From NCBI GenBank assembly GCA_021161255.1, contig JAGHAZ010000056.1, positions 862-64,861 of the forward strand: a stretch of 64,000 bases of DNA, in the 5' to 3' direction. The DNA comes from Candidatus Bathyarchaeota archaeon (lineage in GTDB: Archaea > Thermoproteota > CALKCG01 > B24). This document shows, in pieces, positions 27,744 to 30,061 of this stretch (within the stretch, counting starts at the first letter, position 1; every line of letters begins with the position of its first letter). The notes beneath the pieces are model-generated. The model did not search any database. It saw only the letters and a program-made list of their open reading frames with translations, and was not told where the DNA came from. The translations under genes were made by a program, and so were the position numbers.

Positions 27744-28064
27744 ATGGTGATAACTAGACGAGAGTACGATGAGACCGTCAGAAAGACCTTGGAGTATTTC
27801 GATAGAGCATGTATAGTCCTCACGGAGGATGAGAAGCGGCGAATAGAGGTCACGGACTTTGGACTTGGTAGGCTTATGGAGATCGGTCTTCAGCTTCTCG
27901 TCTACGTCAATACGGACCGATACTGCGCCAAGGAGCTTGTCCTATTCCCATGGCAGATATGTCCTGAGCATAGACACCCGCCTATAAACGGGAGCCCCGG
28001 TAAACAGGAGACCTTTAGATGCCGGCCTAAACCCGCCTCCGGAGGTGGGTTACTATTCCTTTGA
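27744..28064 (+). pseudogene. cupin (D-lyxose/sugar isomerase-like), 3'-truncated
   Basis: [16 protein letters not shown]...GKQETFRC is a cupin metal site. The ORF ends after about 106 aa where relatives run to about 180 aa, and the downstream DNA is decayed. Confidence 0.45.
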
Positions 28065-28086
28065 GTCATGCCGGGAGCCCCTTCAC

Positions 28087-28330
28087 TCTAGGAGCTTGGT
28101 GAGGGCTTCCACCAGCTTCTCCTTCTCCCGGTATATTTCCGCTTCTCTCGATTTTATGAGGAGGTTTATGAGGTCTACTATGGGCTTGACGAGGCTTGAA
28201 GTTATCAGGTAGTCTAGGAGTTCGTGTCTCAGAGCTTGAACCGCCCTATCCTCATCAGCCTCGTATATGCGGATCGTTCTGCCCTCAACCTCGCCGGAGA
28301 GACCTGCCGAGCGTCTTAGGCTCAGACTTC
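28087..28330 (-). pseudogene. start-less ORF fragment, possibly PaREP1-related
   Basis: An open frame of about 80 codons with no start codon (...ALRHELLDYLITSSLVKPIVDLINLL...KEKLVEALTKLLE*). It is not in the ORF track because it lacks an initiation codon. Confidence 0.2.
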
Positions 28331-28546
28331 ATGGTCGCGGGCGGGTTCGCCCTATACTTCAACCCAGCCAGCCGAACAGCATATCTTGAGAGACCTCTCA
28401 ATACTGGAGAATACCATTAAGTAAACGGACAGCATAATGGATATGCTTATAAGTTTACCGCAAGAAAGCTCCCCCATCTTTAGCGGGGGGTAGGTTACAG
28501 CTAAAAAGATAAGGGAGCTTGGGTTGATTAATGATGGGGTGTAGCC

Positions 28547-28925
28547 GTGTCTGAGACGCGCGTTAAGCTTATGGAGAGGTTTTTAGAGGAGGGTAAGCGG
28601 CTGGTCGACGAGGATCCTGTTCAAGCTTCCGAGAAGCTCTATAAGGCTGCTGAGAAGGCTGTTAAGCAGCTCGCCCGCTCCCTCGGGGTGGAGGATGTGC
28701 TTAAGCTCGTCGAGGAGAGGGGGTAGGTGGACCGTGACAGACCTGGAGAAGGTTGTTAGGAGGCTCAGGAGCCTAGAGCCGGGCGTGGTAGGCTGGTGGG
28801 ATAACGCAAACTACCTACACGTGTGGGGTTTCCACGAAGCCAAGCTCGACAGCGAGTCCGTGAAGATTAGATTGCCGAGCGTGGAGAAAATCGTTAAGCT
28901 TGCCCTACTCCACACCACCACGTAA
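28547..28925 (+). pseudogene. PaREP1-family gene with an internal frameshift
   Basis: Frame A reads VSETRVKLMERFLEEGKRLVDEDPVQASEKLYKAAEKAVKQLARSLGVEDVLKLVEERG*. Frame B continues RWTVTDLEKVVRRL...WWDNANYLHVWGFHEAKLD. Together these give the PaREP1 signature (KLYKAAE...A..LHV.GFHE), split near 28728. Confidence 0.5.
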
Positions 28926-29439
28926 GACGGATGGCGAGAGGGTTGTCGATACATGCTTCATAGAGCTCAAATTCGTTCAAGGAGCCGGATGCGGGCAATC
29001 ACTGAAGCCATCCATAGAGGTTTTAACGTATACCTAGTTATGCTCGTATATCTTCCAGGTCGGAGGATTAAGATATTAGTTTATAAGGCATTTGGTTAAG
29101 CGGGGGAGGCGAAGATTTTAATGACACCCTACTCCCAACATCTCGGCTTCCAGCATCTTGGGCACCTCCCTCACCCAGTACGGCAGCTTCTCTAGAATAG
29201 TGGGCTTTTCTCGTTGACGTCTTTCTGCGGTAGGCCTAGATAGTCTACCCGGTTTGTTCAATCTCTTGTGGTGTACCCTGCCGGTGGAAGGAGACGCTCA
29301 GCTCGACGGCTGTCGACTGGGACGACGTTCGAGCGCTCTAGACCCTGGGGGGCGGAGCGCGTGCCGGCCGCCATATAGCGGCCGGGAGACTGGAGCGTAC
29401 GTGGTCCACACCCTCTCCCTATCAAGCTTGATAAGCTCG

Positions 29440-29759
29440 TCAGGTGAAAGCCCAGACCACTCGACAAACCAAGCCAACGCCTTCAAGTAGAGCTTAACCG
29501 TGCCGACAGAACCCCTCCTCCAAAGCCTCCTAAGAAACCTATCCACCGAGCCATACTCAGACCTCTTAAGAGCCCGGTCAATCTTCAGCACATCGACGTA
29601 AAACGGCCTACCCATACCTGTCGAGCAATAGGGGATGGTAGAATAAAGAGTTACCCTCATTAGGGGGTGGGTATGCCGGCCGTAACCCTCCTTCTGTTTT
29701 AGGTGGGATTCGACTAACGCGGCATACCGGAGCCTCGGGCGGAGGCTCATAGGCTCCAT
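29440..29759 (-). mobile_element. orphan N-terminal (SAM-like, core-binding) fragment of a tyrosine integrase
   Basis: TVKLYLKALAWFVEWSGLSPDELIKLDRERV is a phage-integrase N-terminal SAM-like motif, and no catalytic domain follows. The ORF nominally runs to 29298 through a GC-rich non-protein-like block. This is the pattern expected for the int(N) half of an SSV-type partitioned integrase. Confidence 0.35.
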
Positions 29760-29779
29760 TCGCCTTGACGCCCGCAGGT

Positions 29780-29990
29780 CGGCAGTTTCACCCTCACACC
29801 CCGGTATAGTCAGCGGTTGAGCCGCATATCATCCACATCCACCGGGGGGAGGTGTCTTTTCTGCGCCGGAGCCGAGGCTCTCGCCTCCCACGTCGCCGTG
29901 GTGCGGCTCCGCCTGCGTGGAGGAGTTTCCTCCAGACACCTGGGTCAAACCCAGATGTCCGGAAACCCACCCACCGGCTTACCCACCCCG
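29780..29990 (-). ncRNA. GC-rich structured RNA candidate (unknown class) downstream of an archaeal TATA box
   Basis: About 210 nt at roughly 68% GC, well above the flanking regions. It holds several perfect hairpins (ctggg-tttga-cccag, tggagg-agttt-cctcca, ccgg-aaacccaccca-ccgg, ggagccg...cggctcc). No ORF covers it on the minus strand. A TATA box sits at 30012-30021. Confidence 0.25.
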
Positions 29991-30011
29991 TTATCGATAG
30001 GTGTCGCTGGG

Positions 30012-30021
30012 TTATATAAAG
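30012..30021 (-). promoter_or_regulatory. archaeal TATA box (CTTTATATAA on the minus strand)
   Basis: Near-consensus TTTAWATA, directly downstream of the PfpI stop and about 25 nt upstream of the GC-rich block. Confidence 0.4.
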
Positions 30022-30061
30022 ATAGAGAAATTGGAAAAATAGGGTTTGGAGAAGTATGTGG

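Follow-up and report, generated by a model that had tools for sequence, protein, structure and literature searches.

Positions 28019-29681 of the window, the 64,000-nucleotide stretch of Candidatus Bathyarchaeota DNA that was analysed, are very probably what decay has left of a plasmid- or virus-like integrative element from Bathyarchaeia, lying at the 3' end of the gene for RNase P RNA. Bathyarchaeia are abundant and uncultured, and their mobilome is barely known. The assignment is based on sequence comparison; approximately 1.6 kb of the element is left, and intact elements are longer than 10 kb. The original prediction had read the patch as a scar left by a virus or plasmid that integrated long ago, and this core idea holds, with an empty site in the B24 genome, att repeats and fragments of two element genes behind it. 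The accompanying collapse of coding density was confirmed, from about 28026 to 30061. The history of the patch can now be read from the target gene, attL, half of attR, two element pseudogenes and the collateral truncation of a host gene, located as follows.

27744-28025, plus strand: 5' half (codons 1-94) of a host D-lyxose-isomerase-like cupin gene
28019-28027: ATGCCGGCC, attR half-core (right half of the 18-bp core)
28028-28082: element-side arm of attR, from the core to the stop codon of the 114-aa gene, within the stretch 92.3% identical to contig L093
28083-28315, minus strand: pseudogene, C-terminal ~75 codons and stop of a conserved ~114-aa element protein
28316-28546: filler without homolog in the fetched loci (blastn, tblastx); the homology to L093 ends at 28315
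28547-28925, plus strand: PaREP1-family gene (PF05942), frameshifted here by one extra G
28926-29408: non-coding filler, partly GC-rich (29260-29400), no homologs, with strain indels
29409-29618, minus strand: integrase pseudogene, with the N-terminal ~70 codons (MGRPF...RERV) left of a classical tyrosine integrase of ~400 aa (tblastn, alignment)
29619-29663: spacer from the integrase start to the att core (attL arm); equivalent spacing 48-55 nt at 12 other loci
29664-29681: attL core GGGGTGGGTATGCCGGCC, 18 bp, 3' strand of RNase P RNA helix P1
29671-29982, minus strand: host RNase P RNA gene, the putative integration target (RF00373, model positions 1-288 of 288)

Probable integration target and attachment sites

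What had been described as a GC-rich, non-protein-like block is the RNase P RNA gene. This essential ribozyme gene was overlooked when the raw sequence was read and is now annotated. The RF00373 covariance model matches 29671-29982 with 195.5 bits against a cutoff of 84 (E 1e-56) and the match is not truncated. An inverted repeat (29659-29679 / 29974-29994) is present at the ends of the gene and suggests an extended P1 helix, with a true extent of about 29659-29994. In B24 and in contig L001 the gene keeps pfpI and the FAD oxidase gene as syntenic neighbours. No tRNA gene was detected in the 64-kb window by ARAGORN or Rfam. The interior of the RNase P gene is the start point of six fetched metagenome contigs, which fits occupied and empty strains sharing the same samples.

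The 18-mer GGGGTGGGTATGCCGGCC is identical in the attL of the window, the attB of B24, the attR of L093 and the attL of L001, and is matched at 16 of 18 positions in the attR of L001. In L001 the core (3287-3304) and its 16/18 copy (6234-6251) flank a 2.9-kb island, and positions 10973-10990 of L009, the B24 contig, align with both ends of this island. A complete attL-attR pair is documented only in this L001 remnant, L093 representing the right end only. At the right end, window 28019-28315 aligns with L093 1313-1016 over 298 nt (92.3% identity, E 9e-124). The order in L093 is 114-aa gene, arm, full core, B24-type spacer and radical SAM gene, i.e., an intact attR. The window diverges from L093 inside the 18-bp core: where it changes to the cupin gene, L093 continues ...GGCCGGCAT|ACCCACCCC and the host spacer. 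The region of window 28019-28027 resembles 29673-29692. The repeat of the RNase P 3' end at 28019-28053 has a local score of 26 against a background maximum of 24 in the 64 kb, so it is insignificant alone and becomes convincing only when L093 is added.

The comparison with related strains that had been proposed showed that the site is empty in B24 and that sister contigs carry direct repeats of att. In Ca. Bathyarchaeota B24 (L009, the closest genome) the stop codon of the radical SAM gene lies about 42 nt from the core and RNase P gene, and on its two flanks this empty site shares 92.6% and 89.3% identity with the window. B24-like strains are known both with the element (L093) and without it (L009). 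In L003-L005 and L013-L022 no distal att site was found within the 6-11 kb available downstream by blastn-short and Smith-Waterman searches. L093 also encodes a 298-aa wHTH protein with no counterpart in the window or the other loci.

That the patch is a metagenome assembly chimera is exceedingly improbable. The sister contigs L006 and L007 terminate inside it (at 28654 and 28848), as a chimera might lead one to expect, but three independent assemblies from different samples, L006, L007 and L098, overlap across 27674-29966 at 98-99.8% identity, including the cupin-attR and integrase-RNase P junctions; the patch is therefore not a product of chimeric assembly.

Integrase remnant and its intact relatives

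Residues 1-69 of P0003, an intact relative, align with 29615-29409 at 49% identity (tblastn, E 2e-14), and in alignments with intact PF00589 proteins of ~400 aa the window fragment falls at their N-terminus. The ORF at about 29440-29759 had been predicted to carry the N-terminus of a tyrosine recombinase; the integrase N-terminus is genuine, but only 29409-29618 belongs to it, and codons 1-47 of the 153-aa ORF are a non-coding read-through of the gene for RNase P RNA and the spacer. The 153-aa ORF had no match in sequence searches of Pfam, PHROGs, NCBIfam and PDB, and the SAM-like models of Pfam miss the N-terminal domain of the integrase. Homologs were found only by way of metagenome proteins and a composite query, in which the N-terminus from the window was combined with its frameshifted continuation in L001. 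The integrase remnant of L001 is 96% identical to window 29410-29520 at the nucleotide level and extends approximately 170 codons beyond the breakpoint of the window.

The remnant in the window keeps residues 1-70, its own catalytic domain being deleted. Among the intact relatives, P0003 matches PF00589 with 36.7 bits (cutoff 27.1), and R155, H277-x-x-R280, H308 and Y317/Y329 are invariant in integrase alignment A2. The catalytic motif of the family is HxxR and not the KxxR by which SSV-type integrases are defined (PMC8371274). A tblastn search of the 64 kb with four full integrases returned 29409-29630 alone, so that neither a second integrase fragment nor the int(C) counterpart that had been suggested is present in the window. 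No att-like sequence occurs at the fragment end (29408/29409), which is, judging from the alignments, an internal deletion breakpoint rather than an att site. A scan of IMG/VR with the integrase profile gave no matches, as did annotated phage records, and the best identity to annotated plasmid integrases is at most 28% (range 25-28%).

The RNase P RNA gene is located directly upstream of the integrase gene, on the same strand, in all 14 testable contigs (L003-L005, L013-L022 and L057), defined by an integrase at least 62% identical to P0003 and the presence of some upstream sequence; the exception to the identity threshold is P0008 of L004, 57% identical to the composite query. The gap between the two genes is 48-55 nt at the 12 loci measured. 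A full RNase P gene is followed by a full integrase gene in L003, L004, L005, L015, L018, L021 and L022. In the control set of integrases of at most 58% identity, neither RNase P nor a tRNA gene stood beside the integrase in any case (18 by Rfam, 49 by ARAGORN). The sequences thus point to an integrase clade that always adjoins the RNase P RNA gene, more distant integrases not doing so. Other elements encode a primase-polymerase, an MCM helicase and a HerA-like protein, and cargo is wholly different between the window, L001 and L003-L005.

The 114-aa element protein

The minus-strand fragment at 28087-28330 had been called PaREP1-like. It has no match to PF05942 and proved to be the C-terminal two-thirds of the 114-aa protein, profile searches giving only a weak RHH match (E 0.09). 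The pseudogene (28083-28315), which adjoins the attR remnant, lacks a start codon and the N-terminal ~37 codons. It is 62-72% identical (tblastx) to integrase-adjacent genes of L005, L014-L017, L019, L022 and L004; 49 homologs of the protein were found, and one of these, P0028, is 96% identical to the window fragment.

The structure model of the 114-aa protein (pLDDT 91) is predicted to comprise a helix, a three-strand sheet and a long helix, and the family has the invariant motif HExxD. In its size of about 110 aa the protein is like the minigluzincins (selecase, jannalysin, abylysin) and the ImmA/IrrE-type metallopeptidases, and in the model the helix bearing the H-E motif appears to occupy the same position as in minigluzincins. 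The best PDB structure matches of the model were to these proteins, selecase and jannalysin foremost, with probabilities of 0.9-0.99 and E values of 0.01-0.1 (0.01-0.03 for selecase and jannalysin) but TM scores of only 0.3-0.45. Unlike minigluzincins, the protein has HExxD(H/Y) instead of the zinc-binding motif HExxH, and no sequence-profile match was found.

PaREP1 gene and filler

The gene described as a split PaREP1 pseudogene at 28547-28925 is a real, frameshifted PaREP1-family gene, the frameshift being due to a single extra G and not to old decay. With one G removed, the merged 125-aa product matches PF05942 over positions 2-115 of 115 (95.3 bits, E 2.9e-27). The G-run at 28719-28723 reads GGGGG in the window. 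In L007, an independent sister assembly, it is GGGG and the gene is intact; the frameshift therefore either arose very recently by mutation or is a homopolymer error. PaREP1 was found in none of the other RNase P-linked elements. The gene could have been cargo or a later insertion.

Approximately 700 bp of the patch (28316-28546 and 28926-29408) have no homolog, and 13 gaps separate the second of these segments from L098. The GC-rich part (29255-29410) was considered as a structured RNA and rejected (fold z-scores -1.9 and -1.05). A C/D-box match at 28955-29008 scored 25.6 bits against a cutoff of 45 and was taken as chance.

Truncated cupin gene

The cupin ORF (27744-28064) reads through attR to a stop codon at 28062-28064. 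It is indeed cut short, as had been predicted, by about 89 residues and not about 70. It does not belong to the accessory DNA to which it had been assigned; it is an ancestral host neighbour of the radical SAM gene, cut by fusion to attR. The fragment has 71-74% nucleotide identity to the gene directly following the radical SAM gene in L010, L011 and L012, and the intact homologs of distant Bathyarchaeia (L011, L012), with the same radical SAM neighbour, are 187 aa long. With PF07385 the fragment scores 11.2 bits (cutoff 20.8) and the intact 187-aa ortholog of L011 34.2 bits. Homology ends at 28024/28025, the codon table showing ETFRCR followed by divergence. Seven bp, ATGCCGG (28019-28025), are common to the att core and the native cupin codons AGA TGC CGG, and this overlap is the junction at which the attR core is fused to cupin codon 94. 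Before integration the RNase P gene would have lain downstream of the cupin gene; in the more distant relatives L010-L012, RNase P is absent within 10 kb of the cupin gene.

Proposed history of the locus

Comparison of the loci indicates that the element entered the host's RNase P RNA gene at its 3' end through site-specific recombination, by a classical tyrosine integrase whose gene stays intact upon integration (the lambda/pNOB8 paradigm). The attP of the element would have carried the 18-bp core, identical to the 3' strand of helix P1, for recombination by the integrase. At attL a complete RNase P gene would thereby have been rebuilt, with the integrase gene about 50 nt downstream on the same strand, and the displaced copy of the core would have been left behind at attR. 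Internal deletions would then have left only the first ~70 integrase codons, stripped the terminal 114-aa gene of its first third, and removed whatever lay between these two genes except the PaREP1 gene and unassignable filler. In a further deletion, codon 94 of the neighbouring host cupin gene would have become joined by way of ATGCCGG to the attR core at its middle, and the remaining core, the host spacer and the 3' half of the cupin gene would have been lost; this event may represent either a microhomology-mediated deletion or recombination by the integrase at a secondary site. The breakpoints of decay are visible in the alignments; the order of events is inferred.

For the cupin junction only, recombination by the integrase between attR and a pseudo-att site (ATGCCGG) in the cupin gene, deleting the intervening DNA, is possible but on balance unlikely. 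The break lies inside the att core, the 7-bp identity has the size of a tyrosine-recombinase overlap region, and archaeal integrases are reportedly drivers of chromosomal rearrangements, one published study being said to attribute such events to them. A 7-bp microhomology is, however, just as typical of illegitimate recombination, and no second example of such a junction was seen.

Three other histories of the whole patch were weighed against integration at the RNase P gene. The original prediction favoured an SSV-type (suicidal, type I) element, in which integration into a tRNA gene splits the integrase gene and the ORF at 29440-29759 is an int(N) reading out into host DNA. The presence of an N-terminal fragment alone, in an ORF running on into non-homologous GC-rich sequence, is what such an element would leave, but seven long contigs have an intact, full-length integrase gene of the same family, in the integrated state, beside the target. 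The window is without a tRNA gene or int(C), the fragment ends without an att-like sequence at a point that the L001 gene passes by about 170 codons, and the motif is HxxR; this history has hardly any probability left. It is also very unlikely that no integration took place and that an ancestral host gene array beside RNase P is decaying where it stands. The window and L001 represent two lineages with the integrase remnant at one and the same position, which would suit such an array, but the site in B24 is cleanly empty, B24-like strains occur in both states, an 18-bp direct repeat flanks the L001 island, and the cargo differs entirely among the window, L001 and L003-L005.

A mobile element that carries the RNase P RNA gene, instead of using it as a chromosomal target, would explain why this gene always adjoins the integrase gene at a fixed spacing. 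In element-free B24, however, the gene stays with pfpI and the FAD oxidase gene, and different host genes precede it from contig to contig among the annotated integrase-carrying loci, including 23S rRNA in L005; such an origin is extremely doubtful.

Comparison with known systems

Insertion of an element at the 3' end of the gene for RNase P RNA, the preferred history, has features in common with known systems. The intact relatives of the integrase have a PF00589 domain with R...HxxR...Y, as do the classical type II (pNOB8-type and phage lambda) integrases, and their genes likewise remain whole after integration and adjoin attL. As in elements of tRNA genes, insertion would be into a stable RNA gene at its 3' end, with the gene rebuilt and a displaced core left at the far end, and replication genes (MCM, primase-polymerase) are found in the relatives, as in archaeal integrative plasmids. 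Unlike in pNOB8-type systems, the target is the 3' strand of P1 in the RNase P RNA gene and not a tRNA gene, and the core is 18 bp, compared with the att sites of 40-50 bp quoted for pNOB8-type integrases (PMC8371274). The integrase also differs from classical systems in its identity of at most 28% to annotated plasmid integrases, its lack of a match in annotated phage records and its host, the Bathyarchaeia. With the SSV1-type fuselloviruses of Sulfolobales the locus shares an archaeal tyrosine recombinase and an N-terminal fragment beside an RNA gene; it differs in that the att site lies outside the integrase ORF, the gene is unpartitioned, the fragment would stem from a deletion, and no tRNA gene or int(C) occurs in the window.

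Phages and islands integrate into tmRNA ssrA and ffs 4.5S RNA genes (PMC12540744 for ffs), likewise in the 3' part of an essential small RNA gene, which is restored; those are bacterial and use other RNAs, whereas the present target is the RNase P RNA of an archaeon. A 2026 survey gives only the label 'ncRNA', for 13.5% of the RNA targets that proviruses use (PMC13626063). In the literature searched, RNase P RNA is nowhere described as an att target. The mechanism of integration is ordinary, and the target appears undescribed in that literature; that a clade of integrases is dedicated to RNase P and is reported here for the first time we consider an even call. The stable RNA genes used as integration sites are few (tRNA, tmRNA, ffs), and RNase P RNA would be added to them.

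It is much less certain that the co-directional spacing of 48-55 nt allows the integrase gene to be transcribed by read-through from the constitutive, essential ribozyme gene, and likewise that the same integrase may have caused the cupin deletion through the 7-bp secondary site. An integrase gene about 50 nt downstream of the gene for RNase P RNA provides a simple marker for integrated elements and strain-variable islands in Bathyarchaeia.

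Locus features

Coding density drops at approximately 28026-30061 in the ORF listing and six-frame translation of the window, in agreement with the original prediction. The features of the locus are as follows:

28083-28315, minus strand: C-terminal two-thirds of a conserved protein of about 114 aa (tblastx identity 62-72%; homolog P0028 96% identical)
28547-28925, plus strand: PaREP1 gene (E 2.9e-27)
29298-29759, minus strand: 153-aa ORF with an integrase N-terminus, its start falling within the RNase P RNA gene
29671-29982, minus strand: host archaeal RNase P RNA gene (Rfam RF00373, full model, 195.5 bits against a gathering score of 84, E 1e-56)

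The GC-rich block earlier read as "non-protein-like" is thus the host RNase P RNA gene. An inverted repeat at its ends (29659-29679 / 29974-29994) suggests a P1 helix slightly longer than the Rfam match. No tRNA genes were detected across the whole 64-kb window. The stretch 27674-29966 is reproduced at 98-99.8% identity by the sister assemblies L006, L007 and L098.

The 153-aa ORF has no match in Pfam, PHROGs, NCBIfam or PDB sequences. A protein search yielded a 54%-identical ORF (P0002) in the syntenic metagenome contigs L001 and L002, and in L001 the frame runs on, with two frameshifts, to the recognisable start of a catalytic domain. A composite query, made of the N-terminus from the window and the L001 continuation, retrieved intact PF00589 proteins of about 400 aa, among them P0003 at 62% identity and 98% coverage. 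Alignment with these relatives shows that the predicted integrase N-terminus is genuine but confined to residues 48-118 (MGRPF...RERV, 29618-29409); residues 1-47 come from reading on through the RNA gene and spacer, and the tail after residue 118 has no relation to integrase. Four full integrases, searched by tblastn, match the 64-kb window only at this piece (residues 1-69 of P0003, E 2e-14), and no int(C) fragment was found there.

Empty site and attachment core

To the left of the patch lies a radical-SAM gene with 90% amino-acid identity to that of Ca. Bathyarchaeota archaeon B24 (L009), to which the host is therefore related. The window matches B24 over 18001-27673 (92.6%) and 29664-35860 (89.3%); as these blocks stand about 42 nt apart in B24, the whole of 27674-29663 is extra relative to it. 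The sequence GGGGTGGGTATGCCGGCC at B24 10973-10990 aligns with both ends of a 2.9-kb island in L001, at 3287-3304 and, at 16 of 18 positions, at 6234-6251, and so defines an 18-bp att core. This core is the 3' strand of RNase P RNA P1. L093, a contig from the same sample as L001, holds an intact right end composed of the 114-aa gene, a 64-nt arm, the full core, the B24-type spacer and radical SAM. Its flank is 94% identical to B24, hence B24-like strains occur both with and without the element.

Across 28019-28315 the window shares 92.3% identity with L093 (E 9e-124), and the two diverge exactly within the core: L093 reads ...GGCCGGCAT followed by ACCCACCCC and then spacer, whereas the window reads ...GGCCGGCAT followed by CTAAAGGTCTCC, the second part being the reverse complement of cupin codons 90-93. 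The heptamer ATGCCGG, native to the cupin (AGA TGC CGG) and to the att core, makes up the junction. Homology of the window cupin to distant homologs (71-74% in nucleotides) ends at 28024/28025 after ...ETFRCR. The same radical-SAM gene is followed by an intact D-lyxose-isomerase-like cupin of 187 aa in distant Bathyarchaeia (L010-L012), so the cupin is not the accessory DNA it had been taken for. Flank identities are 94.3% and 91.9% between B24 and L001, and 92.6/89.3% and 88.5/87.6% for the window, which is thereby placed outside the B24 and L001 pair; the pair would accordingly have lost the cupin independently of its truncation in the window. RNase P is not within 10 kb of the radical SAM-cupin pair in L010-L012, where sugar-kinase and dehydrogenase genes follow. 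The RNase P-pfpI block thus appears to have moved to the locus by rearrangement in the ancestor of the window, B24 and L001. The pfpI gene beside RNase P is intact in the window (183 aa) and split into 139-aa and 59-aa pieces in L001 (2362-2914).

Linkage of the integrase clade to RNase P RNA

In L003, L004 and L005 a full RNase P RNA gene (180-200 bits) is followed just downstream, on the same strand, by an intact integrase gene, while the host genes upstream of the RNA, 23S rRNA among them, differ. A scan of metagenomes with an integrase profile gave 80 loci. RNase P RNA, detected with nhmmer and Rfam, lies directly upstream of the integrase wherever the latter reaches 62% identity to P0003 and the locus includes some upstream sequence (L013-L022, L057); in 12 loci the two genes are 48-55 nt apart. 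Integrases at most 58% identical have neither RNase P RNA nor tRNA beside the gene in the loci examined (18 by Rfam, 49 by ARAGORN). These more distant integrases, of L025-L092, are 29-58% identical to the linked clade. The target of the clade is identified as the RNase P RNA gene. The contig start falls within this gene in six of the 11 newly scanned linked contigs, which fits a mixture of occupied and empty strains in the samples. Such starts are seen in L013, L014, L016, L017, L019, L020 and L057, suggesting that assemblers break where occupied and empty alleles co-exist in samples.

Nature of the elements

Intact relatives reach more than 6-11 kb past the integrase, and no second att copy was found within 6-11 kb beyond it. 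A primase-polymerase is encoded in L019 and an MCM helicase in L022; L003 carries a HerA-like gene together with one for an MmeI-type restriction-modification enzyme. In gene content the elements resemble archaeal integrative plasmids or proviruses. The RNase P-linked integrase has no match in phage records or in an IMG/VR scan, and the closest annotated plasmid integrases are at most 28% identical to it.

The original prediction was broadly correct in seeing an integration scar, but wrong in its mechanism, its target and two of the four pieces it named. The SSV type, which it proposed, was rejected, as the system fails the tests defining that type. The way of working proposed here is that of classical integration at tRNA or tmRNA 3' ends, which for archaea is classed as type II (PMC8371274). 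That 2021 review of archaeal tyrosine recombinases nowhere mentions RNase P, and full-text searching, with incomplete literature coverage, gave no publication in which the RNase P RNA gene is named as an attachment site. A site in ffs (4.5S RNA) was presented as new in a 2025 paper (PMC12540744), and unspecified ncRNAs make up 13.5% of provirus RNA targets in a 2026 survey (PMC13626063). The decayed element at the locus is in itself ordinary; what is modestly new is the clade of RNase P-specific integrases that it reveals.

Other genes of the patch

The supposed second PaREP1 fragment on the minus strand has no PF05942 match and is the C-terminal part of the 114-aa element protein. This gene adjoins the integrase in many RNase P-linked elements, the two forming a two-gene module that is often convergent. 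The family (49 homologs; alignment A3) is without a Pfam family and has an invariant HExxD motif, not HExxH. The best PDB matches of its predicted fold (pLDDT 91) are minigluzincins and IrrE-type metallopeptidases, with weak resemblance; a role as ImmA-like regulator or as directionality factor is possible. Such genes also occur at L094 10001-10366 and L096 10001-10282, on contigs without RNase P RNA, beside large convergent genes (465 and 365 aa). At the right end in L093, the gene preceding that of the 114-aa protein (4-900) codes for 298 aa, with a winged helix-turn-helix and, at the C-terminus, a Cys-rich motif; a counterpart is absent from the window and the other loci.

The gene at 28547-28925 is a true PaREP1 and is frameshifted in the window, as predicted, but it is intact (125 aa) in L007, an independent assembly of the same strain. 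The difference is one extra G at 28719-28723 (5 G, against 4 G at about 5955 in L007), which may stem from faulty assembly or sequencing and not mark a pseudogene. PaREP1 was not found in any other RNase P-linked element examined. Neither homologs nor significant RNA structure were detected in 28316-28546 and 28926-29408. An RF01153 C/D-box sRNA-like match at 28955-29008 (minus strand, complementary termini; 25.6 bits against a cutoff of 45, E 0.018) is probably due to chance. An F420-ligase-like gene (PF01996) at about 23690-24330 is present as ORFs of 101 and 117 aa in the window, as a single 282-aa ORF in L002, and split otherwise in the sister contigs L006 and L007; it is possibly a second pseudogene or a series of assembly errors.
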